A DNA stretch of 64,000 bases from Magnetococcales bacterium (GTDB taxonomy: Bacteria > Pseudomonadota > Magnetococcia > Magnetococcales > JADFZT01). A program made the translations under genes and the position numbers. The notes under the pieces were generated by a model. That model worked only from the letters and a program-made list of their open reading frames with translations. It was not told the DNA's origin and did no database searches. The stretch is taken from contig JADFZT010000020.1 in assembly GCA_015232395.1 (NCBI GenBank), positions 338 to 64,337 on the forward strand, read 5' to 3'. This document shows, one piece after another, positions 10,952 through 58,995 of this stretch. How positions within the stretch are numbered: the stretch's first letter is position 1; each line of letters begins with the position of its first letter.

Positions 10952-10953
10952 GG

Positions 10954-12985: not shown

Positions 12986-13250
12986 TCATCCCCAGGTTGA
13001 CCCTGCCTGGATCGGATCTTTTTGGCGTAATCCTCACCGAAATGGAGGGACCATTGGCGAATGGATTCGTAAGTCACGATAACCCCTCGTGAGGCCAGGG
13101 TTTTCTCCACGTCTCGAAGCTGAAGGCGAACCGGTGATAGAGCCAAACTGCGTGGCAGATGATCTGGCCTGGAAACCGAAATCCATGGTTAAAGTGAGGC
13201 GTCTTATCCATTGGGAAAATCTACCATGGATGCCGTATGGACGCCAAGTT
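12986..13250 (-). pseudogene. IS6-family transposase, N-terminal fragment (frameshifted, truncated by the IS4 element)
   Basis: Minus-strand reading gives HGFRFPGQIICHAVWLYHRFAFSF, then a 1-nt frame change, then RDVEKTLASRGVIVTYESIRQWSLHFGEDYAKKIRSRQGQPGD. This resembles the IS26-type N-terminus. Homology stops exactly at the IS4 right end (12985/12986). Confidence 0.65.
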
Positions 13251-13286
13251 GACAGTCGCGTAGGGAGGCACACCCCTTCCCTCAAT

Positions 13287-13967: not shown

Positions 13968-13988
13968 CTACTGAATGAGCTGAGTTAT

Positions 13989-16592: not shown

Positions 16593-16785
16593 GGCCTAAC
16601 AATTTCTCATCATCGAAAATGGTTGAAAAGCCCAGACATGCGGGCTGAAAATAATATACACTTCAATGACGAAATGCGATACGGTTTCAGGGACTTGATT
16701 CCGTTTTTAGTAGACTTTAAGTAGAGCTGATAGATCTTTAACGTAGAAAATAGAGGTTTTTATTCTTCAACCTCTGGAGGAAACC

Positions 16786-23300: not shown

Positions 23301-23684
23301 AATCTCCGGGAAGCTATAAAGGATCTGAAAACGACGCGGGAACGCTACCGAACTTTGGCGGAGGGATCACTCCAAGGCCTCGTCATCCATCAGGAGGGCC
23401 GGTCTATCTACGCCAATCACGACGTGGCGAAAATTTTTGGATACGCCGAACCGGAGGAGATCCTCAAGCTTGATGGCGTTGGCGCGCTCTTCAGCGACGC
23501 CGTGGGCAAGGGCGGTTCCACGCGGAATTATCCGTTTCCGACCGGGCACGCGCCGAAAAAGGTCCGGGCGATGGGACGAAAAAGGGATGGAAAAAACGTT
23601 CCCCTGCTGGTTTCATCCCAGATCGTGAAATGGGATGGAAGACTGGCGATCAAGACCGCCGTGGTGGATCTGTCGAATGAATGA
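20376..23684 (+). CDS. CheB-CheR-coiled coil-PAS fusion protein, paralog 2
   Basis: It has the same architecture and motifs as 16786-20145 ([38 protein letters not shown] heptad block). Confidence 0.9.
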
Positions 23685-39594: not shown

Positions 39595-39952
39595 CTCTCG
39601 CTCTACCACAGTCGGCCAGTACCAGAATAACAGGACAGAAAACGCGCACCAGCGATTGCATCATCAGGCATCAGCAAGCACACCGATGCGGAAATTCAAG
39701 CCACCAAGCCACACACAGCGTTTTCTCTCAACCACGTACCAATAAACAATCTTTGCACCAAGACCGCCACCTCCTATCAGCTCGTTTCTTTTTTGGAGCT
39801 TCATAAAAGGGTGATGGTGGAATGGAGTTGAGCCACCAGAGTGGTGCCCGAAATGGGATGGCAGGGGGGAGGACGCCTGCCACAGAACCCTTCTTGGCCC
39901 CTTGTTGGAGAGCTTGACGATGCCTCTGGATGACAGAACCGGGAAAAATGCC

Positions 39953-44343: not shown

Positions 44344-47300
44344 TCAGGCGGCATATGGTGGAACTGTTTGAAAACCGGTTTGATACCCTTCACCCTGAAA
44401 GCTTCCCATATATTTTTCCAGAGTTGATTGGGCACTCCCCAGCGTTTTGAGTAGGGGATCATGAACCAGACCATATATTCCGCCGCCCATTCGTTAAACC
44501 CCATAAACATGACCCAAGGTGTCTTGATGGCATCAATATCCTTCATGGCGGCATAAAAGAGCGCCTCCATCTCATCGGGATCCGCTTCCTGGGGCAGATA
44601 GACGTTAAACCCTTTCCAATAATTTTCATCGGGTTGGGAATAGTTCATGACAACGGATTCAGCGGCGATATTGTTGGGGACGGTCACCAACTCCTGGCAC
44701 ATGGTCAGGATTCGGGTGGTCCGCCAGGTGATGTCCACCACTTTACCGGTGGTTGAGTCCAGTTTGACCTCATCACCGATCTGAAATGGCCGTTCCAGAT
44801 TGATCGCCAAACCGGAAAAAATGTTGGCAATATTCATCTGCACGGCCAAACCAATGATCATCGCCATCAAACCGGAGGTGGCCAACAAACCGGTCAGGGT
44901 TTGGCCAAAAACAAAGGCCACAACAGCAAAAAAGGCGAATAAGAAGATCAGGAAGGTCACCAATCCACGCATCAGATTGGGGATGTTACGATCAGCCTTC
45001 TTTTCCATACGGCGCCAGACCAAAAGTTCAACCAACTGCCTGGTCACCCAGGCCAGCAGCAGGATAATCGCCAGCTTGAGCCCTGCCCAAATGGCGGTTT
45101 TTCGTTGAATTTTGAGTCGGTCCTGGCGGGTCAGGTTGATTTTGCCTTCGATCCGTTGTTGTCGCTCCATAGGGGAGAGAGCGTCAAGAGAGGCGTCCAA
45201 TTCCCTTTGGCGTTCGGGTGAAATTCCATCCAGGCGTTCAATCTGGCTTAGGAGACTGTTTCTCTCTACGGTGAGGGCTCGATTTCGGTTTCGATAAATC
45301 CCTGCTTCCGCCACCATGCCAAAACGGGAGTGACGCACCTTGAGCAGTGTCAGCCAAGTTTCAGCAACGGTTTTGTGAATGTAAAGATCGAATAGGTTTT
45401 TGGCACGCCGATCCAGTTCAGCCCGTTGCTCCTCCTGGGTACCCAACGATTCCAGGAGGGTTTGGCTCTCTTCAGAGGGAGCTGCAAATTCGCTTCTTGG
45501 TTCACTCTCTGTCCCGGTGGTTTTCTGAGAGGCGTTCAGGCGAGCGTTTTGTTCGGACCACTGCTGGGAGAGACGGGCATGGGCCTGTTCGAACATATCC
45601 GTTAACTCGGTCAAAATCGGTCCTTCAGAGTCGTTGAGTCGAAGAAGCCGGTCGGCGGCTTTTTTCTGCTCGGCCAGATTTTCCCGGGTCATTTCAAGTT
45701 CAAGCACCTCTATGTGCAGCGCCTGCAACATGTCCGTCAGTTTTTTCCCTTGTGACGAAACAAACAGGTTCAGAAAGGATTCCAAACCACTTTCAGAGCT
45801 CAGCAATCGCCGTCGCGCATCCTGTTCCAGATTTTTTTGGTCGAGTTCTGAAAGCTTGGCCGTATTTTTCTCAATCAGACGAAGCCATCCATCGAGCAAA
45901 TTGATGCGAACATCCAGCAGAGCCTGCAACTCACCCAGGGGTTGGATGGTCGCATAGCGCGCCTTGTCCGGATCGGAATAGAATGTGATCTGGGCCTCGA
46001 CTTCAGACTTAAGGGCCGAAAACCTGGCCAACTCGCTTTCCAGTGGTGCAATACGGTCGGAATCCAGCAGTTTGCCCAGGTGGGTGGGGGCCTGATCCGG
46101 CTGCATCTCGCCCCGTCCAAGTCGTTTTTGGAGTTCAATCGCACCGGCAAAGGAGGTTTGTGTGGCACTGAGCGTCTGTTCGATCAGATGGATGTGTTGG
46201 GCAAGGGCATCATTCTCCCTGGTCAACAGCTTGACAATACGGGTTTCCTGTTCTTTCTGATCGTTGAGAAGCTGGATCCGACTGACCAGAAGAGCCTGCA
46301 ACTGTTTCAGTTCCAACCCGACGCCTTCCAGCACATCACCCGGCTGATCCCCCCACTGATCCAAAATGGCATAGACCGGAGATCGGACTGTTTCTGAAAT
46401 GGTGGAGGCCTGATTCACTGGGCGACTGGGGTCAGCAAGAGGGGTCATTCCGGCCTGCTGATACAACTGATTGCGAATCAGTTGATGGCGTTGCCCTTGG
46501 GCATTGTGAAGAAAAGCGGAAAAAACATCCTGAGCCGTCTCCAGGTCACGAATTCCCCGAAGGGTCAGTTGACGCATACTGCTCAGCTGGCTGCGACTCG
46601 TTTTCAATTTCCCACTACTTTGGGTAAAAGACTCTTCCGCCACCGCGATGCTTTCAAGGATGGCTTCGGTTTCCAGCTGGCGCAGATGGTTGGATTGATC
46701 GTGCCTCTGGCGGGCATGCTTGAGCAGTCTGGAAAAAGCAATCCGATCCGCTTGGGCCTCCGCCAGAGCGGCCATCTCTGTTTCGATCCTCTGTTCAAGT
46801 TCCGGCAGGCGAAGCTCCGCTTCTGCCATGGCCGCCACAATGTGGGCCGTCTGTTTGGCGCTCTTTTCGCCTATGGTGTCGAGCTTGGCCAATGAGCTAC
46901 CTGGGGGCAACTTCTCTTTGGTATCCGGATGCTTGTTCAACAGGGCAATCAGCACCCGCATATCAACCAGCCGGTCGGCAATACTGCTGTTTTGTTCCAC
47001 CACTTTCTGCCCTCTTTCCAAAAGCAGATTCATGGTGCTGGCCAGCATCTTTTGCTGCTCTAAACGCTCTTCGAGAATATCGTTGCGCTGTTGCAGCTTT
47101 TTGGAGTGCGCTTCCGCCCGGACCAGATCATAGGCGACTGTTTCCTGCTCAGCCTGGTCAATTTTCGGGATCTGCAACTTTTCCAGCGCCTGTTCCAGCT
47201 CCTCCACCTGTTTTTGCAATTGAATGTGTTGACTGTTATTCAGCAAAAACGAACCCATTCTCCAGGTGGTTTCCGCTTCAAGCTGGGAGAGTTGATTGAG

Positions 47301-48080
47301 CTGCTCCTTTGGCGACAGCTGACCAAAATTTTGCTTGAGAGAAGCTTGCTTGCGTAGCCGTTCCTGTTGCTGTTTGAGAAGATCCAGCTTGGCTTGTGCC
47401 TGCCGCTGCTGATCATCATTTTGGATCTGTAGCGCCTGCAAGGTTTTCAACTTTTCCTGAACCGTCGCATTTTCTTCCTGCAGCTTCTTTTGAACCCTCT
47501 TGTAACGTCTTTGGCGTCCATTAAAATCTTTTGAGTTCAGATACTTGGGGATGGTCCAGCGGCGCAGGCTTTTATCATCGACCCGAAATTTGAGTTCCAG
47601 CAATCCCAGATCAATCTGGGGTCGCAACTGGATCCACCCCTCCAACAGAGTCGTCAGGTTTTGGATCAGCTGTTCACGTTCCTGCCAAAGAGCGCGCTCA
47701 TTGTGGATGATCCCCTTCTGCTGCAGGTTGTTCTGGATACGTTGTTCCAAAGCCGTCATACCGACTTCTATGGCCTGGATGGAACTCTCCTGGACAACAT
47801 CCGTGGCAGGAAGCGCAGCACTCAATGCAGCACGCTGTTCCTGAACCTTGAGAAGTTTTTCCAGATTGGTGCGCAGAAGCCGCTGGTCGCTTTTCAAGGT
47901 GGACTCGACCTTGTCATGCAGCGCTTTCATGTGGCTGATCAGCGCTTCGTTGCTCATGCGGTGAAGGGGCAGCTCCTCCTCGGCCTGAACAGGCCCGGGC
48001 ATGGATAACGAACTTAACAACAGAAAGAACGCCACAACGGTAAGGGTGAAGAGCCAGCTGACAGGAGGCGAAAACCGCAT
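44340..48080 (-). CDS. MscK/MscM-like large mechanosensitive channel (MscS family) with long periplasmic coiled-coil domain
   Basis: ATG 48080 gives the signal peptide MRFSPPVSWLFTLTVVAFFLLLSSLSMPGPVQA/EE (the frame is open to 48164). The C-terminal MscS core is IIGLAVQMNIANIFSGLAINLERPFQIGDEVKLDSTTGKVVDITWRTTRILT...VTVPNNIAAESVVMNYS. Confidence 0.85.
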   Translation of the reverse strand: MRFSPPVSWLFTLTVVAFFLLLSSLSMPGPVQAEEELPLHRMSNEALISHMKALHDKVESTLKSDQRLLRTNLEKLLKVQEQRAALSAALPATDVVQESSIQAIEVGMTALEQRIQNNLQQKGIIHNERALWQEREQLIQNLTTLLEGWIQLRPQIDLGLLELKFRVDDKSLRRWTIPKYLNSKDFNGRQRRYKRVQKKLQEENATVQEKLKTLQALQIQNDDQQRQAQAKLDLLKQQQERLRKQASLKQNFGQLSPKEQLNQLSQLEAETTWRMGSFLLNNSQHIQLQKQVEELEQALEKLQIPKIDQAEQETVAYDLVRAEAHSKKLQQRNDILEERLEQQKMLASTMNLLLERGQKVVEQNSSIADRLVDMRVLIALLNKHPDTKEKLPPGSSLAKLDTIGEKSAKQTAHIVAAMAEAELRLPELEQRIETEMAALAEAQADRIAFSRLLKHARQRHDQSNHLRQLETEAILESIAVAEESFTQSSGKLKTSRSQLSSMRQLTLRGIRDLETAQDVFSAFLHNAQGQRHQLIRNQLYQQAGMTPLADPSRPVNQASTISETVRSPVYAILDQWGDQPGDVLEGVGLELKQLQALLVSRIQLLNDQKEQETRIVKLLTRENDALAQHIHLIEQTLSATQTSFAGAIELQKRLGRGEMQPDQAPTHLGKLLDSDRIAPLESELARFSALKSEVEAQITFYSDPDKARYATIQPLGELQALLDVRINLLDGWLRLIEKNTAKLSELDQKNLEQDARRRLLSSESGLESFLNLFVSSQGKKLTDMLQALHIEVLELEMTRENLAEQKKAADRLLRLNDSEGPILTELTDMFEQAHARLSQQWSEQNARLNASQKTTGTESEPRSEFAAPSEESQTLLESLGTQEEQRAELDRRAKNLFDLYIHKTVAETWLTLLKVRHSRFGMVAEAGIYRNRNRALTVERNSLLSQIERLDGISPERQRELDASLDALSPMERQQRIEGKINLTRQDRLKIQRKTAIWAGLKLAIILLLAWVTRQLVELLVWRRMEKKADRNIPNLMRGLVTFLIFLFAFFAVVAFVFGQTLTGLLATSGLMAMIIGLAVQMNIANIFSGLAINLERPFQIGDEVKLDSTTGKVVDITWRTTRILTMCQELVTVPNNIAAESVVMNYSQPDENYWKGFNVYLPQEADPDEMEALFYAAMKDIDAIKTPWVMFMGFNEWAAEYMVWFMIPYSKRWGVPNQLWKNIWEAFRVKGIKPVFKQFHHMPPE

Positions 48081-48390
48081 GATGGATCTGTCCTTAAGGC
48101 TATATTTTTTTGGAAACCATCTGGCCAAAATACCCATACATTTAAAAATCAGCGAACAAAACAAAACGTTATAAACAACAAACCACCACCTACCAGATCA
48201 ACTTTTTTTCAATACGGTCCGTTGTCTAAACCATCAGCGGCCAAAATCCATCTTACCCAGCTTTATTTGATGCGCACCTACCCCGAACAGGTGCTGCATC
48301 CCAAAGTGGTCATCCAGATATTGAATTTCAGCCACTGACGGCTTTTCTGACAGCGTGGCAGGTTATCTAATCCACGCGCCCATCCATAGA

Positions 48391-49065
48391 TTATTTTTCC
48401 CGCACGGCTGGAATCGGAACGGCATGGGCCTTGGCGTTTTCAGGGGCGGAAAACAGTTCAGGATTGGTAAATCTGCCCCCTATGTTCAATACGGAAGGAT
48501 CCTCACCCGGCTCCACCCACCAGCACCACAAAAGATGCAGCGATTCGGTCTCGGATGTGTTGGTAAAACCATGCACCGTATAGGGGCGATGGTACATCAT
48601 GTTGCCGGGTTTCACTTTTTTGTTCTCATCATCAGCCCACCAATCGGCCTCACCTTCCAAGACAAAATACATCTCATTGGCAGGGTGATTGTGTGCGGGA
48701 TAGGTGACGCCCGGTTTCAGATAATAGTCACCACACATGATATTTTCGGGGTTCAACCCCGTACTGGAGCTGGATCCAAGCAGAACACGATAGAAATGGA
48801 GGGAATCTTCATCCGCCATGCCATTGGGCGCATGACCCCGATACCATGCGGGATATTTGGGATTGATCTTTTTATCCACTGTCTCGGCGTCGGCAAAGGA
48901 GGTGGTCCCCTTCAGACGCCCAGGAACCTGATACTCTCCACTATAGAGGCTGGGCTTACTGTCGACGCTCTCCTGTGTGGTGGTCGCACAGCCCCCCAGC
49001 ACCGAAAGTGCCGCAACACAAAGAATCTTGGCTGGACCTTTTACTATTTTAAACATGACATGCAC
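48391..49065 (-). CDS. Cupin-domain lipoprotein
   Basis: Lipobox LSVLGG/C. Cupin motif 1 is YPAHNHPANEMYFVLEGEA (HxHxxxExY) and motif 2 is GNMMYHRPYTVHGF. Confidence 0.7.
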   Translation of the reverse strand: MHVMFKIVKGPAKILCVAALSVLGGCATTTQESVDSKPSLYSGEYQVPGRLKGTTSFADAETVDKKINPKYPAWYRGHAPNGMADEDSLHFYRVLLGSSSSTGLNPENIMCGDYYLKPGVTYPAHNHPANEMYFVLEGEADWWADDENKKVKPGNMMYHRPYTVHGFTNTSETESLHLLWCWWVEPGEDPSVLNIGGRFTNPELFSAPENAKAHAVPIPAVREK

Positions 49066-49104
49066 CTTTGGTCATCGAAATGACAGAGAAGGAAAACCAC
49101 ACAG

Positions 49105-50520
49105 TTATACGGCCTCTTTCCGGGCAAGGACCAAAACCCAACCGAGGGTTCCCCGTTCCGTTGTTTTGGCGCTCTCGGCATAGGCCGTGGCAAGACGGGG
49201 ATAGTTGGCCTTGTTGGCCTGTTGCCCCACACGTTTATAGGTGATGTGCAAATGCTGCGTTAAATCTTCCCAGTTGTCAATCACCAGGCCATTTTGTTCC
49301 ATGGCGGTTTGATAGGCCTCCTGGAGGTGGAGGGTTTCCAGATGGAAGCGATCACAGACCCACTCCCGCACATGGTCGTCCACCTCCCCCCTGGGAGAAA
49401 TCAGGGTATCGAAACTCATCACCCCTCCGGGTTTGAGCACCTGACTGAGCTTTTCAAACAGGGGCTGCATCTCCCGGGCGTGCACATGATAGATGGCCGC
49501 GTTGCTCCAGATATGGGTGAAGCTTTCAGCCGCGAATTCGGCTTCCACCATGCTGGCGCAAAGGAATGAAACCCGTTTTTTAAGTTCTGGAGAGGCCTTG
49601 GCCAGGGCCGCTTCGGCCTGCTCGATGTTGGTCGTGCTCAGATCGAGCCCCACCACCCGACACTGATAGGTCTCAGCCAACCAAAGCGCGGTATAGCCGT
49701 TGCCACACCCCACATCCAACAGCACCGACTCCTCAGTCAAACCGATACGCTCTGCCATTCTTTGTACATGCAGATCGGTGGCGGCTTCCAGGGAGATACT
49801 CTCCTCCTGCCCAGGGGGAAAGTGACCCCAGCACATGGAACCGTTACCGGACCAAACCTCACGCATGATCTGGTTTTGGTGGCGATAGTAGGACTGTTTA
49901 TTGTCATCCAGAGCCCCTTCCAGAGGGCGGCGGGCCAGGAACACCTTTTGCGTTGCAAACGGCACCTGACAGATGCCGTTAAAATGGTTCTGACGCAGCA
50001 GATCCCCCACGCTCTCAGAACGGATCGAACCATCACTATCGCCAACCATCCCATGGACCAAAACACTGCCACCCGGGGCCAGCGCCTTGAACACCCCGTC
50101 AAGCAGCCGGTTCAGGTTGGCTAAAGCCGTGGCCAGCCCCTCTTCCTGGCCTGGATTGTTCCAGTCAAGGGAGAGCAAAAACCGGGATGAAACCTGCAAT
50201 AAAACCAAATCCACCCGGCGGCTGCCCAAGGTTGCGGCCCAATTGGCATCGGTCACACTCTGACAACTCATGGCAGCCACGAAAGGATCCGCTGCCTTCT
50301 GACAGATATCGAGATGCTGCTGACAGCGCTCGGCATCAAAATCAATCATCTCCAGATCTATGCCGCATTGGCGTATTTCCACCAGGGGCAGCGCCAGCTC
50401 CGGCACCACCTGACCACCCGATAGGGAGAGCACGCACTTGCCATGATTTTCATGGATGATATGGAATAGCTGCCTGACCTGCGGGGAAGCGTCCTGGCTC
50501 AGATGCATTTCATTACGCAT
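49105..50520 (-). CDS. Two-domain class I SAM-dependent N-methyltransferase (sarcosine/dimethylglycine-MT-like C-terminal half)
   Basis: The C-terminal half has YYRHQNQIMREVWSGNGSMCWGHF...LLDVGCGNGYTALWLAE...LKPGGVMSF. This matches the betaine-pathway MT pattern (FY..IWGGEDIH.G.Y ... VLDxGxGxG). The N-terminal half is a degenerate MT-like fold (LAPGGSVLVHG). Confidence 0.7.
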   Translation of the reverse strand: MRNEMHLSQDASPQVRQLFHIIHENHGKCVLSLSGGQVVPELALPLVEIRQCGIDLEMIDFDAERCQQHLDICQKAADPFVAAMSCQSVTDANWAATLGSRRVDLVLLQVSSRFLLSLDWNNPGQEEGLATALANLNRLLDGVFKALAPGGSVLVHGMVGDSDGSIRSESVGDLLRQNHFNGICQVPFATQKVFLARRPLEGALDDNKQSYYRHQNQIMREVWSGNGSMCWGHFPPGQEESISLEAATDLHVQRMAERIGLTEESVLLDVGCGNGYTALWLAETYQCRVVGLDLSTTNIEQAEAALAKASPELKKRVSFLCASMVEAEFAAESFTHIWSNAAIYHVHAREMQPLFEKLSQVLKPGGVMSFDTLISPRGEVDDHVREWVCDRFHLETLHLQEAYQTAMEQNGLVIDNWEDLTQHLHITYKRVGQQANKANYPRLATAYAESAKTTERGTLGWVLVLARKEAV

Positions 50521-50589
50521 GGTAGCGGTTTCTTTCCTTCGGCATGAGGGGATGACCGACTGGGGTGGGATGGATCACAAACCGGATCC

Positions 50590-51894
50590 TTATCCTTCCT
50601 CAGGGGGGCGTTCGCCACGGAACAGGAATCCATCGAACGCCTCTGCGGGCTCCAGTTGATCGAACCAAGTCGCATCGGCATCAAAACGGGCAAAAAACGG
50701 CATCCGGGTCAAATGGGGATCCCGGGCCTGGAGATATTGAAAAACAAAGCGTTTTTTGCCGCCCAGCCACCGCGTGCCCAGCACTTGCACCTTGCCATAT
50801 TGTGTAGACATGACGGGGGCACGCACGGTTTTGGCCAAGCCACTCACCTGCCCATACACTTGCTGGACCAGATGCAGCGCCTTGTCGATGGAAATTTCAA
50901 AGCGACCTTTCGCCCCGGTATCCCGGGGAAGAAAGAGATAATAGGGGATGCACCCCAGCTTGATTTCGCTCTCCCAGAGCTGTTTCAGGGTGGCAACTTG
51001 ATCGTTGATGCCGGCCAGCAGGGGCGATTGGGTACGGATCACCACCCCCAAACGGCGAACCACCTGAATGGCCTCACGGGCCTCGTCCGGCTCCAACTCC
51101 CGGGGATGATTGACATTGGCCAGCAAGGTCAGATGTTTGCCACGATCGACAACCTGTTTAAAAAGCGCCAACAGCTCTGGTGTATCTGGATCCTGCAAAA
51201 AACGATTGGGCCAAAAGCCCAGTGATTTGGTACCGATGCGAATATTGGTGATGTGATCAAGATCACTCTGGAGCAGAGGCAGCAGGTAGTCCGATAGTTG
51301 GGAGGCGTTCATGAACAAAGGATCCCCCCCGGTGAGGACCACATCGGTGACCTGAAGTTGGCTCTTCAGATAGTCGATCCACCTGGGAATGTCGTGTGGC
51401 GCCAATTTGTGTTTGCTTTGGGCCCCCTGAATAAACTGTTCCCAACGGAAGCAATAGGTACAGAAGGCAAAACAGGTCTGCCCGGCGTGGGGGAAGGCCA
51501 GCACCGTTTCCTGATATTTATGCTGAACCCCATTCAATGGTTCGCCAGCAAAGAGTGGAATATTCTGGCTCTGCTGACTGGGATCCGGGTTCATGCTGAT
51601 CGTCAGTTCGGCCAGAAGATCCTTTTTTTGACTGGGGCTTATCGTTTCAACCGTGTCCAACCGGCTCAGAGTTTGATAGATCGATGGAGGGACGCAATCT
51701 TTTTCAGGAAAGATCATTTTAAAGATGGGATCATCGGGTACGGCCTGCCAGTCGATGAGCCGCAAAATATGGGCATTGGCTCGAAAAGGAAAAACCCGAC
51801 TGACTGTTTCTATCTGTTTTAGTACGCCAGCTGGCAGCGTTTTCAATTGCTGAAGATCGACAAGGTCAGAGCGATGCATGAGGGAATAGGACAT
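50590..51894 (-). CDS. KamA-family radical SAM 2,3-aminomutase-like protein
   Basis: The CxxxCxxC cluster is CFAFCTYCFRW. Other motifs: VVLTGGDPLF, IRIGTKSLGFWPNRF, LANVNHPREL, IRTQSPLLAGIND, IPYYLFLPRD. The start is uncertain (ATG 51894 or TTG 51906). Confidence 0.85.
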   Translation of the reverse strand: MSYSLMHRSDLVDLQQLKTLPAGVLKQIETVSRVFPFRANAHILRLIDWQAVPDDPIFKMIFPEKDCVPPSIYQTLSRLDTVETISPSQKKDLLAELTISMNPDPSQQSQNIPLFAGEPLNGVQHKYQETVLAFPHAGQTCFAFCTYCFRWEQFIQGAQSKHKLAPHDIPRWIDYLKSQLQVTDVVLTGGDPLFMNASQLSDYLLPLLQSDLDHITNIRIGTKSLGFWPNRFLQDPDTPELLALFKQVVDRGKHLTLLANVNHPRELEPDEAREAIQVVRRLGVVIRTQSPLLAGINDQVATLKQLWESEIKLGCIPYYLFLPRDTGAKGRFEISIDKALHLVQQVYGQVSGLAKTVRAPVMSTQYGKVQVLGTRWLGGKKRFVFQYLQARDPHLTRMPFFARFDADATWFDQLEPAEAFDGFLFRGERPPEEG

Positions 51895-52162
51895 AAACCA
51901 ACCCAAGGAGCGAAATGATAAGGCCCCCTAACGACAAAGAATGATCAGGAGAGGAGCGGCAAAAACAAGGTCGACTGAATAAGATGGCAGATACAGACTC
52001 AGCCAGCCCATTGAGAGACTGCTTACCATATATTAACCGCAATGGCTGCCGACCTCAACTATCGATGCCCACCCGTTTTTAGAAACAGCCTGATAAACAT
52101 CATTGAACTGAAATTCAATGCACGCAAAAACATTGATTCTAGCCGACGCCTGTTTCACGCAT

Positions 52163-52229
52163 GGTGTCAAATTTGGCAACCAGCCCGCCCCATGGTAAAT
52201 CTCCCACCATAGACACAACCAAGCCACAC
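52163..52229 (+). repeat. Dispersed repeat family 2, copy 2
   Basis: See copy 1. It lies in the 0.7-kb divergent intergenic region between the KamA gene and the E2-like operon. Confidence 0.6.
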
Positions 52230-52335
52230 CACCCCAAATTCCGTTTCCCAGGCAAAATCATCGCGCATGAGGTTTGGCCCACCTTCAACTTTACCATAAA
52301 CTATTGAAATATAGATGAAATCGTGGTTTTGCAAA

Positions 52336-52445
52336 GTGGGAGGCCATTATCGGAATTTCGTCTGAAAATTGAAAAAAAATCCGAGCCTGCGTCTTGGTTT
52401 TTGGAGATCGGTTTTGCCGTGTTTGGCTCAACTTGACAGAATCTT
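52336..52445 (+). repeat. Dispersed repeat family 1, copy C (diverged)
   Basis: The sequence is GTGGGAGGCCATTATCGGAATTTCGTCTGAAAATTGAAAAAAAATCCGAGCCTGCGTCTTGGTTTTTGGAGATC... Confidence 0.55.
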
Positions 52446-52611
52446 CAACAGGGTTTTACTCAATGTGATAAAATCTCAAAAGGCTATCACACACCGAAAG
52501 AAAATGTTAACTTTTCAACGTGGACAAAGTTTTAACGAGGGACAGCGGGCTGAGCAATAACATGACAGTATCGACAGCCCCCTCCGGGCTCCTGCAGGAA
52601 ACAATTCAAAC

Positions 52612-53958
52612 ATGATCACCGAATTCAGAGTCCCACAGCTCAACCCCAACGACATAGAGATCCTGGTGGTTCGCTGGAAGGTGAATAACGGAGCCACGGT
52701 CTCCTCTGGCCAGGAGATCGTCGAGGTGGAAACGGCCAAGGCGGTGGTAGAACTCGAAGCGCCGGTATCCGGTCATATCAAGCAGGCTTGCCTGGCTGGG
52801 GATATTCTGAAGGTGGGGAAAATTCTCGCATGGATCGCCGACAGCCAGGAATCGCTGACAGCCCTTGAAGACAAACCCACTGAAATAAATGGGGGAAATG
52901 TCCTTTCGGAAAACCCCGAAAGCTCCCCGGCCTCCAACGAAAATCGACGCCATTCCCCCCTCCCCCCTTCCCGGAAAAAGTCTCAAGAAAGCCGCTTTTC
53001 CCGTTCAGCCCAGGCGCGAATCCAGGCTTTGGGCATTCCGGAATCCCGTTTTGAGGGGATGGGGCTCGTGACCAACCGGGTGGTGGATTCGGTGCTGGAG
53101 GCCACATCCGGGGAGGCCACGACCAAAGGAGGCTCGGAGTTCCAGAGAAACCCCCTTCGCACCCAACGTGTTCCCCCCGGGAAGGCCCTGGAAATCGATC
53201 TGTTGACCCACGGCCAGGCCAATCTGATCAACAGCTCTCTCACAGTGCTGCTTCCCTCTGAAGGAATCCGCCAGACGCTTCGGGATTGGCAGTTTGAAGG
53301 CTCTCTGCTTTCCCTCATTCTCTATGAATTGACCCGACTGCTGAGAGAGCATCCCCGCTTCAATGCGTTCTACCACAATGGTTTCATTCATTTCTACGAC
53401 ACCATCGACGTCAATCTGGCCCTGGATCTGGAGAAGGGCTTGAAAGCGCCCATCATCCGGGATGCCGGGAAGATGACGCTACAGAAGATCAACGAAGCTG
53501 TCCACGCCTTGGTACGGGGCTACCTGGAAAACAGCCTGAGGCCGGAAGAGTTGATCGGCGGCACCGTGACCGTGACCGATCTTTCCGGGGAAAACATTCT
53601 CCATTTTCAACCACTGCGCAACAAAAACCAGGCGATCATCATCGGCATCGGTGGGGATGCCGATCCCCCCGGCCACCCCCTCTCGATCACCTGCGTCTTT
53701 GACCATCGGGTGCTGAGTGGACAGGAGGTGGGACAGTTTTTGAATAGCCTGAAAGAACGGCTCTCGAGTTACACCCTGGAGGGGATGCCGGTGACCGGGC
53801 AGGCTTTTTTGCACCAACGCACCTGCTCCCGCTGTGGCATCGACCTCAAAAGCCTCGAAGCCCAGTGGGGCGACCAAGCCATGCTGGTGCGTATGATCTC
53901 CACCCGAGGGGAAGGGTGGATATGCCACCGCTGTCTGCCCCTGAAATCCGAACCATGA
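52612..53958 (+). CDS. Lipoyl-domain / 2-oxoacid dehydrogenase E2-type acyltransferase with C-terminal zinc ribbon
   Basis: Lipoyl-type motif EIVEVETAKAVVELEAPVSG and an Ala/Pro/Ser-rich linker. The E2 catalytic core is GGTVTVTDLSG...ITCVFDHRVLSGQEVGQFLNSLKERL. The tail is CSRCG...CHRC. Confidence 0.85.
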   Translation: MITEFRVPQLNPNDIEILVVRWKVNNGATVSSGQEIVEVETAKAVVELEAPVSGHIKQACLAGDILKVGKILAWIADSQESLTALEDKPTEINGGNVLSENPESSPASNENRRHSPLPPSRKKSQESRFSRSAQARIQALGIPESRFEGMGLVTNRVVDSVLEATSGEATTKGGSEFQRNPLRTQRVPPGKALEIDLLTHGQANLINSSLTVLLPSEGIRQTLRDWQFEGSLLSLILYELTRLLREHPRFNAFYHNGFIHFYDTIDVNLALDLEKGLKAPIIRDAGKMTLQKINEAVHALVRGYLENSLRPEELIGGTVTVTDLSGENILHFQPLRNKNQAIIIGIGGDADPPGHPLSITCVFDHRVLSGQEVGQFLNSLKERLSSYTLEGMPVTGQAFLHQRTCSRCGIDLKSLEAQWGDQAMLVRMISTRGEGWICHRCLPLKSEP

Positions 53959-54713
53959 ACCGGGCGGAATTGATTCGGCAGGTGGTGGCCCGCTTTTTGG
54001 GACTTTTCCAAGAGGGGGTTCTGCTGGAAGGCCCTCTGCACCGCCACGGCCTACGCTCATCCATCCAGTGTCTCAAGCTCCACGCCCTGCTGGAAGAAGC
54101 CACCAAGCAGCGCGTCCCACCCATCACCACCGACATGACCCTGGCAGAGATCGTGATGCGTTTCAGGGGGGAGGTTATGGAAACAGCTACAGCTGCCACA
54201 ACGGCTAACGCCACAGCGCCGCACACCTCTTCCGCCCGTCCCTCCCCTCCCTCCACTGATGGGCAACACCCAAGCCGGGAAATGGATCCATCGCGCTTTT
54301 CCAGAGAGCCATCCTCTTCCCAATCCCCCCACCAAAAGTGGGAGATTCCCCCTTTTTTTGTTGGCATCGATATCGAAGAGGTAGCCAACCTGCCCGAAAC
54401 CGACCACTACCGGGCCACCCCCTTCTATCGGGATAATTTCAGCAGCCGGGAGATCGCCACCGCACTCCTGAAACCCTCCCCCCGGATCACCTTCTGCGGC
54501 TGGTTTTGCGCCAAGGAAGCCCTCAAGAAGGCACTACCGGAGGTCACACCCTTACGCCTGTCAGAAATCGAAATCCACGAAGCCGCAGGGCGACCCCGGA
54601 TCACCACCATTCACCCCCGGATCAATCAGCGTTACCAACTGCAACTCTCCATCAGCCATACCGAGCACACTGCCGTAGCGGTGGTGCATGCCTTTCAGGT
54701 GCGCCATGGGTAG
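53955..54713 (+). CDS. Carrier-protein-like domain fused to AcpS-type 4'-phosphopantetheinyl transferase
   Basis: The ATG overlaps the previous stop (ATGA). The N-terminal ~75 aa, RAELIRQVVARFLGL...HGLRSSIQCLKLHALLEE, resemble an ACP/DltC helix II region with Ser in the DSL position. After a low-complexity linker comes FFVGIDIEEVANL...FSSREI...FCAKEALKKALPE...LSISHTEHTAVAVV (ACPS). Confidence 0.75.
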   Translation: MNRAELIRQVVARFLGLFQEGVLLEGPLHRHGLRSSIQCLKLHALLEEATKQRVPPITTDMTLAEIVMRFRGEVMETATAATTANATAPHTSSARPSPPSTDGQHPSREMDPSRFSREPSSSQSPHQKWEIPPFFVGIDIEEVANLPETDHYRATPFYRDNFSSREIATALLKPSPRITFCGWFCAKEALKKALPEVTPLRLSEIEIHEAAGRPRITTIHPRINQRYQLQLSISHTEHTAVAVVHAFQVRHG

Positions 54714-56520
54714 GCAATCCGGCTGGCTTCAGCGGTTGATGACTTTTTTTGAAGAGGGGGCGATCTGGAAATGGCGTTTTCTATTCCAGGGAGGCAAACT
54801 CTCCCGTTTTCCCCGGTTGGATCCCTACCGCCGTCTTGCTTTCGACCCCATTGACAAAGGCAGCCGGATCCTGGTGGTGGGAGATGGGGTGGCGGCGTTT
54901 ACCCTGTTGCAGGCGCTGCACCGTTACGGTTTCAGGCATCTCACTTTACTGGCTCCCTTCGATACCCTGGGTGGAACCTGTCTACACCACGGCTGTATGG
55001 TTTCCGCCTGGCTCTCCACCCGGGAAAACCTCGATGCAGCCACTCTGGATGCGGGCCTGACCCAGTTGCGCCAAAAATTGGTCCAGGGCATGACCCACAC
55101 CCTGGAAAATCTGGGGGTCCATTTTGAGCCTGGCTCTCTTCAGGAGATTGACAACCAAACAGCCATCACCCGGGCAGGGGGGCGGATAGCCTTCGATCGA
55201 TTGGTGCTGGCTACCGGCAGTCGCCGGCGTTCCCATCCCATCCTGGGTGAGACCCTCTCACTGCCGCAGTTTTGGTCATTGCGTGAAGGCCATATCGTGA
55301 TCGTCAACGAGGGTTCTCCAGAAATATATACCCTCGCCCACTTGGCCCAACGTCTGGGACTCCGGGTCACCCTGCTCCTCACGGGAAATCGTCCACAGCC
55401 CCGGCCCCCTTCCTTGCTGGATCTCCAATCCCGGTTGCAAGAGCAGGGGGTTGTCATGCATCACTCTGTCCGAATTTTGGAACGGCACAACACCACCCTG
55501 AGCGTCACCGTGGATGGGAGGAGCCTCCAGATTTCCTTCGAGCATCTTTTCCATCTGGGTGCACCCATCCCCAATCTGCCACGGGTGGACGGACATTTTT
55601 TAACCTTGGGGGATCTGGATCTGGAGCGGGGCTCTTTTCGCCACCATGAAAACCTCTACGCCGTGGGTGATGCAGCTGGTTTTTTCACCGCTGCCGAAGC
55701 CCAATGGCACGCTGAAGCCTTGGCCCGGACCTTCTCCCAGGGCACACCCATGCGCTGGGCACCCCTGGAGCGGCTGCCAATGCTCTTCCATGGTGACCCC
55801 CCTCTGGCCATGGTGGGGGAACCCCTCTCTCTGTTTCGCAGCAAAGGCTGGCGTCGGATCGATTTTTCCAGCCTGGGCTGGTCTGCCATCCACGGTATCC
55901 ACGGGCAGCTCTGGTATCTCCCTTGTGCCGATGGTCGCTCTCTTTCAGCGATCCACATCGCCCACCCACAAGCTGATCTTTTGATCGGCCAAGCCGCTGC
56001 TCTGCTGGATTACGCCCTGGACGATCCCCGCTGGCAGCTTAGCGCTCCCCATCCATCGGCAGGAGAGATTTTTCACCTTTTGATCTCGGATTGGCGTACT
56101 TTTAAAAAGCCTTCGCCTGTTGTGGCCAAACCCTCCCGCCTGCCCCGAACCCCCGTCTCCAGGATCCTCCATCTCTCCTCTGGCCTCATCCATTTTTCCC
56201 TGGAAGAGCGACAAGCTGCCCCCCTGCAACCCGACCCGGAGCGCTATCTGAAACTACTCCTGGCCCTTAAAAATCGCCTCGGCCTCACCAGCCAGGAGAC
56301 CCTGCCCCTGATTCCGGATGGGAAGGGGGGATATGTAGCGGATGGAGTTGGACCATTTCGGGATGTGTGGGAGTCTTCGACCGGTATCCTGAAATTTTAC
56401 TGGCAGGAGGAGCAAGACCCCCTCCTCGTCATCGATGATAAGCCCGCAGCCCCCCTCCCCTCTCCGACCACCGATGGGGAGCAGGGAGGGAAGCGGCAAA
56501 CTCATCCATTGCATGGATAG
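54688..56520 (+). CDS. E3-like FAD-dependent pyridine-nucleotide-disulfide oxidoreductase with unassigned C-terminal extension
   Basis: ILVVGDGVAAFTLLQAL (FAD GxGxxA), GGTCLHHGCMVS (E3-type redox disulfide CxxxxC), IVIVNEGSPE (second dinucleotide fold) and YAVGDAAGF. The alternative start ATG 54706 overlaps the upstream stop. Confidence 0.75.
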   Translation: MPFRCAMGRQSGWLQRLMTFFEEGAIWKWRFLFQGGKLSRFPRLDPYRRLAFDPIDKGSRILVVGDGVAAFTLLQALHRYGFRHLTLLAPFDTLGGTCLHHGCMVSAWLSTRENLDAATLDAGLTQLRQKLVQGMTHTLENLGVHFEPGSLQEIDNQTAITRAGGRIAFDRLVLATGSRRRSHPILGETLSLPQFWSLREGHIVIVNEGSPEIYTLAHLAQRLGLRVTLLLTGNRPQPRPPSLLDLQSRLQEQGVVMHHSVRILERHNTTLSVTVDGRSLQISFEHLFHLGAPIPNLPRVDGHFLTLGDLDLERGSFRHHENLYAVGDAAGFFTAAEAQWHAEALARTFSQGTPMRWAPLERLPMLFHGDPPLAMVGEPLSLFRSKGWRRIDFSSLGWSAIHGIHGQLWYLPCADGRSLSAIHIAHPQADLLIGQAAALLDYALDDPRWQLSAPHPSAGEIFHLLISDWRTFKKPSPVVAKPSRLPRTPVSRILHLSSGLIHFSLEERQAAPLQPDPERYLKLLLALKNRLGLTSQETLPLIPDGKGGYVADGVGPFRDVWESSTGILKFYWQEEQDPLLVIDDKPAAPLPSPTTDGEQGGKRQTHPLHG

Positions 56521-56534
56521 CCGGGCCTCATACC

Positions 56535-58076
56535 ATGCTCTTCAACTCCTTCCCCTTTATCCTGGCTTTTCTTCCAGTGACCCTGCTGGGGTTTTATCTC
56601 CTGGGAGAGCGGGGGCATCGGAGCGGGGCGCTGGTGTGGTTGGTTTTCTGCTCACTCTTTTTCTACGGCTGGTGGAACCCACGCTATCTGGCGCTCATCC
56701 TGGGATCCATCGCTTTTAATTATGGGGTGGGAATTTGGCTGGAAAAATGGGGCCATTCCGGGAGAAAAAAACGGACTGGCTGGCTCCTGGCCCTGGGGAT
56801 TTTGGCTAATCTGATCGTTCTTGGCTATTTCAAATACAGCCTTTTTTTTCTGGAAAATCTCAACCTGATTCTGGACAACCGGTTTCACATTGAGGCGATC
56901 ATCCTGCCCCTGGGCATCTCCTTTTTTACCTTTCAACAGATCGCCTGGCTCACCGACATCCATCGGGGGGGAAAAATTCAGGGACATTTTCTCCATTACA
57001 GCTTTTTCGTGGTTTTTTTCCCCCAGCTCATCGCAGGCCCCATCGTGCGCCACAAGGAGATGGTCCATCAATATCAAAATCCGGCCTTCACCCGGCTGGA
57101 TCCAACCAACCTTTCACTGGGTCTTACCCTCTTTTTCATCGGACTTTACAAAAAAGTAGCCATCGCCGACCGGTTGGCCCCCTTCGTGGATCCCCTTTTT
57201 TTGGCCGCTGAGGCAGGCCATGCCCTCAATTTTACCGATGCCTGGCTCGCCGGCCTCGGTTTCGGCTGCCAGATCTATTTCGACTTTTCCGCCTATTCGG
57301 ACATGGCCATGGGCCTTGCCGCCCTGTTCAACTTAAGGCTGCCTGTCAATTTCAACTCCCCCTTCAAGGCCTGCAACATTGTCCAGTTTTGGCAACGGTG
57401 GCACATCACCCTCAGCCGTTTTTTGGCCCACTATCTCTTTGCCCCGATAGCCCTCACCATGCATCGGCTGGCAGAACGTTTGGCAGTGGGTGGCTGGGGC
57501 CGCTTTTGGCTCACGGTTCAGGTGCCGCTCCTTGTCACCTTTCTTCTCTCCGGCCTCTGGCACGGGGCGGGGTGGACTTTTATCTGCTGGGGGGGGCTCC
57601 ACGGCCTATATCTCATCATCCACAACCTCTGGTCGGCCTGGCGGGAGCGATGGGGCAACAAAACAAGACTGAGTTGGCTGGGGGAGCTGGCGGCCCGCCT
57701 GCTCGCCCAAGGCATGACCTTTGCCGCCATCACCGTGGCCTGGATTCTCTTCCGGGCGGAATCATTGGGGGGGGCTGGGGTGATGCTTCGGGCCATGGCC
57801 GGTCAGAGCGGATTTCAAGCGGATCGGATTGACTTTCCCGCCGGGGGGCTGGTGGTGGTCCTCTTGCTGATCACCTGGTTGGCGCCCAATGCCCTGGAAC
57901 TCACCCGCCGCTACCAGCCTGCACTGGAAAACCATCGGGGGGAGATTCGTCAATTTGCGCCAGTGGTGTGGCGTCCCAGTGCGTTTTCCGGGTTGGTCCT
58001 GTCGCTCCTGGCCTTTCTCGGTCTGCTCTATCTTTTTGTCTGGACCCGCGATGAATTCATCTACTTCCAATTCTGA
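56535..58076 (+). CDS. MBOAT-family membrane O-acyltransferase (AlgI/DltB-like)
   Basis: MLFNSFPFILAFLPV... N-terminus and multiple TM helices. The signature is FWQRWHITLSRFLAHYLF and SGLWHGAGWTF. Confidence 0.9.
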   Translation: MLFNSFPFILAFLPVTLLGFYLLGERGHRSGALVWLVFCSLFFYGWWNPRYLALILGSIAFNYGVGIWLEKWGHSGRKKRTGWLLALGILANLIVLGYFKYSLFFLENLNLILDNRFHIEAIILPLGISFFTFQQIAWLTDIHRGGKIQGHFLHYSFFVVFFPQLIAGPIVRHKEMVHQYQNPAFTRLDPTNLSLGLTLFFIGLYKKVAIADRLAPFVDPLFLAAEAGHALNFTDAWLAGLGFGCQIYFDFSAYSDMAMGLAALFNLRLPVNFNSPFKACNIVQFWQRWHITLSRFLAHYLFAPIALTMHRLAERLAVGGWGRFWLTVQVPLLVTFLLSGLWHGAGWTFICWGGLHGLYLIIHNLWSAWRERWGNKTRLSWLGELAARLLAQGMTFAAITVAWILFRAESLGGAGVMLRAMAGQSGFQADRIDFPAGGLVVVLLLITWLAPNALELTRRYQPALENHRGEIRQFAPVVWRPSAFSGLVLSLLAFLGLLYLFVWTRDEFIYFQF

Positions 58077-58995
58077 CGAAGGTTGGCCTTTCGTGGCCTG
58101 GTTCCTCTGGACCCTGGGAGCGCTTCTTCTGTTTTCAGCATTGGCCAGTGAATCGCTCATTCGCCTGAAAGTGGAAAAGCAGGACAATCGCCTGCACCAC
58201 CTGACGATCTACCATACCGACTCAAGCCCCACCGCCATATTTGGCGACTCCCATGGGGCCGTGGATCTGCAACCCAAGGAAGGAGTGGTCAATCTGGCCT
58301 ATGTCAGGGAATCCATAGAGGTGATCGCCATGAAGATCCGCCTTCTTCTGGATCGACGCCCACTCAAGCGGATCATCCTCCAGGCGGATCCATCGATGTT
58401 CGGCCCCTATCGCCTGGATGCCGTTGCCGATGTGGAGGCCTTTCGCCATCTGGACCAAGGCGGTTTCAATACCAGTTTTTTTACGCTCCGCATTGTTCTC
58501 GACCAACACCGCCCCCAAATTCTCAATTATTGGCGGGTTTGGTTCGAGGTGGGCAGTTTCCAAAAGCCGATCCTGCGCCTGCATCCCGGAGGATGGCTCG
58601 AAATGAGACGCCAATGGTTGGAGATGCCCGCTCCCCGCCGCAAACAGGAAACCCTGGCCCGCATCGCCTTACAGCGTCCACCGGCTCACTTTGCCGACCA
58701 CCGGTTTACCTCCATCTACACCCAACTGCTCACTGAATTGATCGATGTGCGCCACATTCCGGTCTGCCTGATCGGCTTTCCCATGTCCCCCGACTATCTG
58801 GCGGAAATGGGCCCCTCTTTCGACCTGGTACAATCCTGGTTTCAAAAAACCGCCTTGGCCCATGGTGCAGCCTATTTCAACTATGTCGATCTCTATGGGG
58901 AACAGCCCCATCTTTTTGCCGACCAGGATCATCTCAATAAGGATGGGGCAGCCATTTTTTCTGAAAGGGTTTTCCACGATTGTGGGGTCGATTGA
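58051..58995 (+). CDS. N-terminally anchored extracytoplasmic protein in the DltD/AlgJ position (SGNH-like block I)
   Basis: ATG 58051 overlaps the MBOAT end by 26 nt. It has one TM helix (WPFVAWFLWTLGALLLFSAL) followed by AIFGDSHGAVDL (GDS-type motif). Homology is not otherwise recognisable by eye. Confidence 0.5.
   Translation: MNSSTSNSDEGWPFVAWFLWTLGALLLFSALASESLIRLKVEKQDNRLHHLTIYHTDSSPTAIFGDSHGAVDLQPKEGVVNLAYVRESIEVIAMKIRLLLDRRPLKRIILQADPSMFGPYRLDAVADVEAFRHLDQGGFNTSFFTLRIVLDQHRPQILNYWRVWFEVGSFQKPILRLHPGGWLEMRRQWLEMPAPRRKQETLARIALQRPPAHFADHRFTSIYTQLLTELIDVRHIPVCLIGFPMSPDYLAEMGPSFDLVQSWFQKTALAHGAAYFNYVDLYGEQPHLFADQDHLNKDGAAIFSERVFHDCGVD

Follow-up and report, generated by a model that had tools for sequence, protein, structure and literature searches.

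A lipoyl-E2 and carrier-protein operon with an AlgI/PatA-type MBOAT–SGNH pair in a Magnetococcales bacterium: a candidate envelope acylation system

In the current mechanistic view, bacterial polymer acylation by an MBOAT (membrane-bound O-acyltransferase) and an SGNH partner follows one of two donor logics: Dlt draws on a carrier loaded through an adenylate, and all other systems use acyl-CoA and no carrier (PMC12148441). In the MBOAT PatA, the Tyr of a FXYXXF motif is auto-acylated and then passes its acyl group on to the SGNH protein; in Dlt this motif resides on a separate microprotein, DltX (PMC12148441). Another way of charging a carrier is known from natural product pathways. QncN/QncL/QncM and SclQ1-4, the latter with the phosphopantetheinyl transferase (PPTase) SclP, form glycolicacyl-S-ACP (ACP, acyl carrier protein) from a ketose via a lipoyl intermediate, according to PMC6335953, which cites Peng et al. 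2012. For pepteridine, the E2-T-C fusion Plu2796 and an E1-like subunit were proposed to prime the carrier "in place of CoA", with the E3 borrowed from the host (PMC5384830). Here we analyze five genes, g1 to g5, in a 64,000-nt stretch of contig JADFZT010000020.1 from a Magnetococcales bacterium (the window), where a lipoyl-E2, a carrier and an MBOAT–SGNH pair are encoded together.

The five open reading frames (ORFs) lie on the plus strand, and every junction and all quoted motifs were confirmed directly in the sequence (Table 1). The g1 and g2 genes share an ATGA overlap (53955-53958), the ATG of g3 (54706) precedes the TAG of g2 (54711-54713), a 14-nt gap (56521-56534) lies ahead of the g4 ATG (56535), and g4 and g5 overlap by 26 nt (58051-58076; g5 ATG at 58051, g4 TGA at 58074-58076). 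An original prediction, made by a model from the letters alone, had listed five coupled genes at these coordinates with their motifs, all of which were read back from the sequence. Each of its domain assignments also holds by Pfam, NCBIfam, fold search and family alignments. The profile search that it had proposed gave Pfam matches in g1, in the C-terminal half of g2, in g3 and in g4, and none for g5 or the g2 N-terminus; in an NCBIfam scan of the five genes, all equivalog scores were far under their cutoffs.

We see an even chance that g1-g5 form one operon whose products acylate an extracytoplasmic envelope polymer by way of a carrier protein. What the analysis shows is the order and coupling of the genes, the identity of their domains, the conservation of catalytic residues and cross-genome co-occurrence; from these we infer every acyl-transfer step. 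Slightly short of even is our confidence in the wider proposal that AlgI/PatA-type MBOAT–SGNH pairs are fed by an ACP charged by a pyruvate dehydrogenase (PDH)-like E1 and a lipoyl-E2, and not by an adenylating enzyme or acyl-CoA, which would be a third donor logic. The most extreme form of this proposal would take the E1-less version in the window as a stand-alone lipoyl relay.

Table 1. Genes, predicted functional sites and mobile-element genes, in window coordinates.
Feature	Position	Strand	Length	Description
g1	52612-53958	+	448 aa	E2-like lipoyl acyltransferase
g1 Lys43	52738-52740	+		Predicted lipoylation site in VETAKAV; invariant in 21 family members
g1 Asp364-His365-Arg366	53701-53709	+		Predicted catalytic DHR of the E2 core; invariant in family alignment A1, aligns with the PDH E2 DHR
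g1 C-terminal CxxC...CxxC tail	53824-53934	+		Zinc-ribbon-like; in 18 of 21 aligned family members, last Cys pair degraded in one
g2	53955-54713	+	252 aa	Carrier domain + AcpS-type PPTase
g2 acyl-carrier domain	53955-54170	+		Residues 1-72; from AlphaFold2 model and Foldseek
g2 Ser36	54060-54062	+		Predicted phosphopantetheine attachment site; N-terminus of helix 2
g2 AcpS-type 4'-phosphopantetheinyl transferase	54354-54713	+		Residues 134-252
g3	54706-56520	+	604 aa	E3-like flavoprotein; second in-frame ATG at 54688
g3 redox disulfide GGxCxxxGCM	54970-54996	+		Conserved across 12 orthologues
g3 VNEGSPE	55303-55323	+		In place of NAD GxGxxG; NAD motif replaced family-wide
g3 His-Glu dyad HPSxxEIF	56050-56073	+		Conserved across 12 orthologues
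g3 C-terminal extension	~56113-56520	+	about 135-170 residues	Beyond the dyad
g4	56535-58076	+	513 aa	MBOAT
g4 His290	57402-57404	+		Predicted catalytic His in WQRWH; WQRWHITLS aligns on WNRWHMSLS of DltB 6bug
g4 C-terminal FIYFQF	58056-58073	+		Residues 508-513; FXYXXF acyl-shuttle motif with putative acyl-accepting Tyr
g5	58051-58995	+	314 aa	N-terminally anchored, predicted SGNH-fold acyltransferase partner
g5 Ser67	58249-58251	+		GDS Ser; invariant in 71 aligned members
g5 Asp291...His294	58921-58932	+		DxxH block; His294 invariant in 71 aligned members
Promoter-like site	52445-52474	+		TCAACA, 18-nt spacer, TAAAAT, TG-extended; ~140 nt upstream of g1; weak evidence
Reverse transcriptase (RVT_1)	348-1286			Mobile-element gene
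YhgA-like Transposase_31	3879-4883			Mobile-element gene
DDE transposase	11599-12840	-		Mobile-element gene
rve integrase	33321-34355	-		Mobile-element gene

The g1 protein matches Biotin_lipoyl at residues 4-74 (E 7e-13) and 2-oxoacid_dh at residues 229-387 (E 3e-30) in Pfam. Its best PDB matches are PDH E2 cores, and the E2 equivalogs of NCBIfam score far under cutoff on it. Its close homologues (E 1e-42 to 1e-96) make up an E2 family of their own, with members in cyanobacteria, Bdellovibrionota, Burkholderiales, Bacteroidota, Acidobacteriota and others. Pfam detected no peripheral subunit-binding domain (PSBD, PF02817; the E3/E1-binding domain) in g1; this domain is absent from all 32 close members of the family and present in nearly all canonical E2s of the same search. 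The zinc-ribbon-like tail of g1, which to our knowledge is absent from canonical E2s, may be a docking element that substitutes for the missing PSBD. It is missing from short E2 forms of the family; such tail-less forms often occur together with a free-standing ACP. We rejected a housekeeping PDH or 2-oxoglutarate dehydrogenase (OGDH) as the identity of g1-g3, given the lack of a PSBD and of an E1, the presence of the carrier–PPTase and scores far under the equivalog cutoffs.

The original prediction had proposed that g2 joins a Ser-bearing carrier-like domain to a PPTase, and this was borne out by the structural model. Pfam gave no match to the g2 N-terminus even at E<=10, and one homologue (P0113) has a weak precomputed PF00550 match. 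A profile of the domain aligned by hhalign with E. coli AcpP placed Ser36 of g2 on Ser36 of AcpP, weakly (probability 30%, E 6e-4); against single sequences of DltC or of the ACP of locus L023 the alignment was not significant (probability 1-2%). The fold search with Foldseek settled what the profiles had missed. The AlphaFold2 model of g2, built on a 27-sequence alignment, has a mean pLDDT (predicted local distance difference test) of 85.6 and a disordered linker between its N- and C-terminal domains. The carrier domain is modelled as a four-helix bundle (helices 3-15, 28-31, 36-50 and 63-70; pLDDT 84-96). Modelled alone, it has acyl or peptidyl carrier proteins as all of its top 50 Foldseek PDB matches, the best being E. 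coli butyryl-ACP 1l0h (TM-score 0.78, root-mean-square deviation 1.8 A). Ser36 is the sole invariant residue of this domain in 17 homologues and is at least 90% conserved in 27 sequences. By its model, therefore, the g2 N-terminus is a true carrier domain whose Ser is conserved.

A low-complexity linker (residues 73-133) joins the carrier domain to the PPTase, which matches ACPS at residues 136-232 in Pfam (E 8e-9) and TIGR00556 in NCBIfam. Foldseek related this C-terminal domain to the PPT domain of fungal fatty acid synthase and to bacterial AcpS (E 1e-7, TMt 0.77-0.81), and its motifs GIDIEE, AKEALxK and SISH are invariant in the homologue alignment. One sub-family of carrier–PPTase proteins ends in a transmembrane helix (P0123, P0124, P0128, P0132-P0134, and L005 at 10001-10738). 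Such a protein is also encoded in L074 (1757-2593), where a g5-family SGNH protein (2701-3834) comes directly after it; no MBOAT was detected on that contig.

The third protein is assigned by sequence to the class-I flavoprotein disulfide oxidoreductases and is E3-like. It matches Pyr_redox_2 at residues 54-333 (E 2e-13), and its best PDB matches are dihydrolipoyl dehydrogenases (E 4e-7); on the lipoamide dehydrogenase model TIGR01350 it reaches 30.5 bits, where the cutoff is 408.8. The FAD motif is conserved across the 12 orthologues, as are the redox disulfide and the dyad; the alignment drew on L001, L002, L007, L010-L014, L016, L020 and L031. Pfam gave no match at E<=10 on the C-terminal 273 residues. 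The natural role of g3 would be to re-oxidize the dihydrolipoyl arm, and its electron acceptor may be other than NAD+.

The fourth protein carries an MBOAT domain at residues 151-391 (E 6e-25) and is about 100 residues longer than DltB. Against the DltB model TIGR04091 it scores 157.6 bits, where the cutoff is 375, and only residues 9-406 are covered. It ends in a fused FIYFQF shuttle motif, for which reason we class it as an AlgI/PatA-type MBOAT and not a DltB-type one. Six of the seven MBOATs with which g4 was compared share this ending: those of L023, L063, L108, L049 and L053, which are E2-family loci, and that of the carrier-less L037. The MBOAT of L110 keeps the FXYXXF pattern and reads FLYRNF; the other MBOATs that were read to their ends have F[IVL]YFQF. 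No gene for a DltX-type microprotein lies between the operon genes. The fused motif and the low DltB score led us to reject a DltB orthologue as the identity of g4. The original prediction had called g4 an AlgI/DltB-type MBOAT, and of this label the AlgI half stands and the DltB-like architecture does not.

Finding the family of g5 depended on the search. A word-indexed homologue search with g5 returned only g5 itself, and a full phmmer search found 415 homologues. Pfam gave no match to g5 itself even at E<=10. Among 71 aligned homologues, 40 match Lipase_GDSL_2, 32 an AT3-fused SGNH family, 21 DltD (PF04914) and three ALGX; the g5 profile itself weakly matches a GDSL protein (E 0.002) and DltD 6o93 (E 0.06). 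The protein has a hydrophobic N-terminal anchor, and its start at 58051 is backed by the N-termini of its homologues (MxxSTSS consensus). It is thus predicted to be a membrane-anchored SGNH protein in the DltD/AlgJ/PatB position. The original prediction had put an anchored protein in the DltD/AlgJ position, and the invariant Ser67 and His294 and the SGNH-family matches of the relatives agree with it. In BLASTP, g5 showed no significant similarity to the 386-aa partner in L023, for which Pfam gave no match at E<=10. The partner proteins of these MBOATs appear not to be one family, because a hidden Markov model of the g5 family missed those of both L023 and L063.

The N-terminus of g5 (MNSSTSNS) and the MBOAT's C-terminus (DEFIYFQF-stop) are encoded by the same DNA (58051-58076) in different frames. 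The same MBOAT/SGNH overlap measures 26 nt in L037 (4824-4849) and 29 nt in L023 (6594-6622). With the MxxSTSS consensus in 71 g5 homologues, these overlaps make the MBOAT-stop/SGNH-start junction look like a conserved, family-wide coupling device.

To place g1-g3, we carried out a tblastn census of loci in one genome per species (30 loci) and in a metagenome collection (the best 80 of 297 relatives). A fused E1 alpha-beta gene (~650 aa) lies directly upstream of the E2 gene in 95 of the 96 loci with at least 600 nt of upstream sequence, and the carrier–PPTase fusion lies downstream of it in 70 of the 89 loci with at least 1.2 kb of downstream sequence. Of 113 loci, 16 have the E3-like gene and 8 have an MBOAT within 10 kb of the cassette. 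The E1 of the relatives is closest to PDH E1 alpha and beta, under the equivalog cutoffs. In the window, which covers nearly all of its 65.8-kb source contig, tblastn with the E1 proteins of three relatives gave nothing better than E ~1 over the 64 kb, in line with the original prediction that no E1 is present there. That prediction had gone on to describe the whole system as E1-less, and had held that an E1 encoded just outside the arrangement in relatives would speak against it; such an E1 lies immediately upstream in 95 of 96 relatives. The relatives keep the E1, so its absence is peculiar to this contig and does not characterize the system.

One way to read g1-g3 without an E1 is that g3 keeps the lipoyl group of g1 reduced and the E2 core moves an acyl group from acyl-CoA via the dihydrolipoyl arm to g2. 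E2 cores do transfer acyl groups reversibly between CoA and dihydrolipoamide, and in the window g1-g3 are intact and coupled without an E1. Two further loci have an E2 without an adjacent E1: L027, with a NeuB-like gene before the E2, and L064, with NRPS (nonribosomal peptide synthetase) genes after it. Both are short contigs, so an E1 may sit just beyond their ends. The relatives argue the other way, as does g1, which resembles E1-linked E2s: the family alignment revealed no family-specific departure of g1 from them. Such a route would also be a redox-neutral detour without obvious benefit. It had been put forward in the original prediction, found no positive support here, and we consider it very improbable.

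The lack of an E1 against the family rule could also mean decay. The operon would then have come by horizontal transfer or rearrangement without its E1, g1-g3 would be unproductive, and only g4/g5 might work. The G+C content (0.57-0.59 across 54-58 kb, against ~0.52 in the flanks) is compatible with horizontal acquisition, several mobile-element genes lie in the window (Table 1), and the g1 homologue search found no other Magnetococcales member of the E2 family. Against decay, the five reading frames are intact, with all catalytic and cofactor-attachment residues conserved and translational coupling preserved. The 705-nt spacer upstream of g1 (51907-52611) contains no credible ORF, E1 fragment, small carrier or DltX-like ORF. 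A remnant of this kind seems to us improbable. In the same region, a promoter and terminator scan gave a site count not above shuffle expectation, and Rfam had no match on the operon.

What the cassette does in its relatives can be judged from its neighbours. A survey of the closest flanking ORFs in 31 loci, two per side and 123 in all, was dominated by 13 hexapeptide acyltransferases, seven GT2 glycosyltransferases, seven PP-binding proteins, six GT1/GT4 glycosyltransferases, six Condensation and five AMP-binding proteins, and four sugar-nucleotide dehydratases or epimerases. E2 and carrier are also found in one chain: P0014 joins E2, carrier and PPTase, and a 2418-aa, ACP-containing ORF of L015 (9947-17200) has the E2 at its N-terminus. 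In loci without the carrier–PPTase fusion, a free ACP often stands beside the E1 or E2 (L023, L034, L059, L063 and L108). The neighbour families and the E2–carrier fusions fit a cassette that would supply an acyl-carrier to whatever acyltransferase has its gene close by.

NRPS-type megasynthases (Condensation, AMP-binding, PP-binding) are fused to the family E2, or follow it, in L015, L064 (365-5686), L022, L024, L026 and L029; assembly lines are therefore among the systems that the cassette serves, as they are in the Qnc and pepteridine pathways. It is found as well inside nonulosonic-acid clusters of pseudaminic or legionaminic type, with NeuB, PseG-like, CMP-synthetase and aminotransferase genes (L027 at 12-3548, L063 at 5735-18069, and the P0113 contig), and may there provide nonulosonic acids with an unusual acyl substituent.

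The MBOAT is part of the operon in several relatives. In L023 the order is MBOAT, 386-aa anchored partner, ACP (PF00550), E1 and E2. In L063, a cluster of pseudaminic-acid type, it is CMP-synthetase/aminotransferase, ACP, E1, E2, E3-like, MBOAT, 376-aa partner, PIG-L, PseG-like and NeuB. The MBOAT starts 0-8 nt past the E2 stop in L096, L101 and L108, the last of which has an ACP-like ORF just ahead of the E1; in L049, L053 and L110 an MBOAT is nearby on the opposite strand. Identity among the cassette-linked MBOATs, and between them and g4, is only 30-39%, so the pairing has come about repeatedly, and in our reading this recurrence speaks for a functional link and not for chance. In the operon of the window, no acyltransferase genes but g4 and g5 could use the acyl-carrier, and Pfam found no other acyltransferase in 20 further large ORFs (several other large ORFs were left unscanned). 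The same scan, with NCBIfam on the five genes, found no adenylating (AMP-binding) enzyme, as the original prediction had stated for the operon.

Several observations weigh against carrier-fed acylation by g4/g5. The nearest relatives of g4 (43% identity) and of g5 (35%) among the loci compared are paired in L037, a locus with Capsule_synth, NeuC, NeuB and CMP-synthetase genes that lacks carrier, E1 and E2. The use of acetyl-CoA has been demonstrated for PatA-type MBOATs (PMC12148441), and with the L037 pair this means that g4 may not need a carrier. An MBOAT lies within 10 kb in few loci and most cassettes adjoin hexapeptide acyltransferases, glycosyltransferases or NRPS genes, so the MBOAT is not the usual consumer. 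No polymer-synthesis genes lie in the window. The lack of an E1 in the 64 kb makes any source of the acyl group hypothetical here, and the module may be crippled. Finally, without the glycine motif for NAD binding, an E3 role of the g3 family is not straightforward.

These points could be accommodated by two independent modules, in which g4/g5 would be an ordinary AlgI/PatA O-acetylation pair working on acetyl-CoA and g1-g3 would feed an acyltransferase encoded elsewhere, for example a cytoplasmic hexapeptide N-acyltransferase or an NRPS. Their co-transcription would then reflect a common glycan target and not a direct hand-off of the acyl group. The carrier-less L037, the view that MBOAT/SGNH systems other than Dlt are carrier-free (PMC12148441) and the predominance of Hexapep acyltransferases, glycosyltransferases and NRPS genes over MBOATs beside the cassette all agree with this. 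Yet neither the operon nor the scanned flanking genes contain an alternative acyltransferase, glycan or NRPS gene. The same-strand coupling of MBOAT and cassette is tight in at least five other loci and involves divergent MBOAT lineages, and L023 and L063 place a free-standing ACP in the MBOAT operon. We regard two separate modules as unlikely. The original prediction that the E2 loads the carrier and the MBOAT/SGNH pair exports the acyl group remains plausible in view of the E2–carrier fusions and the cassette–MBOAT operons; the relay that it had suggested is not without precedent. The co-occurrence map for which it had called places g1-g3 in a widespread cassette, with an MBOAT nearby in eight of the related loci.

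If the acyl group does pass from the E2 through the carrier to the MBOAT–SGNH pair, we propose the following sequence of steps. The PPTase half of g2 would turn its own N-terminal carrier domain into the holo form. A thiamine diphosphate (ThDP)-dependent, PDH-like E1, presumably supplied in trans from elsewhere in the genome, as its presence in relatives suggests, would decarboxylate a small 2-oxo acid or cleave a ketose and reductively acylate the lipoyl-Lys43 of g1. The E2 core of g1 would move the acyl group from the dihydrolipoyl arm to the phosphopantetheine thiol of g2 and not to CoA, by analogy with QncL/QncM and Plu2796, and g3 would re-oxidize the arm through its FAD and redox disulfide. 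At the cytoplasmic face, g4 would take the acyl group from the carrier and its His290 would place it on the Tyr of FIYFQF, as may be expected from the PatA and DltB/DltX mechanisms. The g5 protein would accept it on Ser67 and transfer it to a hydroxyl of an envelope polymer.

The dedicated loader and carrier suggest an acyl group of a type without a common CoA thioester or pool. Glycolyl, for which there is a precedent, other short hydroxy-acyl groups or an odd acyl group are candidates; D-alanine is unlikely.

The remainder of the window contains other gene groups. On the minus strand, divergent from the operon, positions 48391-51906 encode a KamA-like radical SAM protein (438 aa), a CMAS-like methyltransferase (471 aa) and a cupin with DMSP-lyase-like similarity; in relatives, these genes showed no link to the operon. 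A 1274-aa protein (44340-48164) has an MscS domain and, at its N-terminus, a long and apparently coiled-coil region; it adjoins two ORFs without a Pfam match, one of 956 aa (41473-44343, minus strand) and one of 468 aa (39902-41308, plus strand). Two tandem genes of ~1100 aa (16786-20145 and 20376-23684) encode a CheB methylesterase and a CheR methyltransferase fused to PAS domains, and several PAS histidine kinases flank them.

Among the described systems, the loading half of the operon is closest to the cassettes of quinocarcin (Qnc), naphthyridinomycin (NapB/NapD) and scleric acid (SclQ1-4). In these, as proposed here, a lipoyl-E2 protein serves a dedicated ACP and not CoA, with a ThDP E1-like partner in their case, and the scleric acid cluster has a dedicated PPTase, SclP, beside the cassette, as the PPTase is here (PMC6335953). 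Unlike them, the operon has a carrier fused to the PPTase, an E3-like gene, a zinc-ribbon tail on the E2 and no E1 in the window. The Qnc, Nap and Scl cassettes feed NRPS lines, whereas the only downstream acyltransferase of the operon is the MBOAT/SGNH pair. The likeness to the Qnc and Plu2796 proteins is one of description, and an overlap of families is suggested by the NRPS neighbours in some loci.

In the pepteridine pathway of Photorhabdus luminescens a PDH-like E1/E2 was likewise proposed to prime a carrier arm, and the carrier Ser is required (PMC5384830). The borrowed E3 shows that such a system can draw components in trans. The consumer in this pathway is a cytoplasmic NRPS condensation domain that acylates a pterin, not a membrane MBOAT, and there is no PPTase fusion. 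Loading of a carrier by the E2 is thus reasonable but not new: the lipoyl-to-phosphopantetheine relay of the original prediction has precedents in Plu2796 (PMC5384830) and in QncN/L/M and SclQ1-4 (PMC6335953).

Canonical 2-oxoacid dehydrogenases (PDH, OGDH and the branched-chain enzyme, BCKDH) share with the operon the lipoyl-Lys, the DHR core and an E3-like flavoprotein with CxxxxC and the His-Glu dyad. They differ from it in the PSBD, in an E1 at the locus and in the NAD GxGxxG motif, all lacking here, and the operon has an extra C-terminal region in g3 and an added carrier–PPTase.

For the export half, Dlt (DltA, DltC, DltB, DltX and DltD; D-alanylation of teichoic acids) provides the order of transfer proposed here, from carrier thioester to MBOAT, to FXYXXF acyl-Tyr, to SGNH protein and to polymer (PMC12148441). 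In the operon, in contrast, the loader would be a lipoyl-E2 and no adenylating DltA is present, the carrier is a domain of g2 and not a free protein like DltC, and g4 bears the FXYXXF motif itself, which in Dlt is on the DltX microprotein. PatA/PatB, AlgI/AlgJ/AlgX and WssH/WssI have the same MBOAT His, a fused FXYXXF and an adjacent membrane-anchored SGNH protein with Ser and His as in g4/g5. These AlgI/PatA-type systems are described as carrier-free and dependent on acyl-CoA, whereas the window (without the E1), L023, L063 and L108 encode a carrier and a PDH-like loader in the operon. The occurrence of an ACP and such a loader with AlgI/PatA-type MBOATs, including MBOATs inside nonulosonic-acid glycan clusters, contradicts the generalization that these pairs are carrier-free.

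Each part of the operon is of a known kind, and the combination looks undescribed; in the searchable literature we found no description of E2-to-carrier loading joined to an AlgI/PatA-type MBOAT–SGNH pair. The new part appears to be the link of the MBOAT/SGNH pair to the E1/E2–carrier cassette. If true, it would be a new way to choose the acyl group placed on capsules, lipopolysaccharide or other surface polymers, which could bear groups without a CoA pool, such as glycolyl or other units derived from 2-oxo acids. It would also give a function to a widespread unannotated cassette of fused E1, PSBD-less E2, carrier–PPTase and E3-like protein without the NAD motif, with the 297 relatives coming from the metagenome scan alone. 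The rare E2-to-carrier chemistry of a few antibiotic pathways would then extend to the cell envelope.

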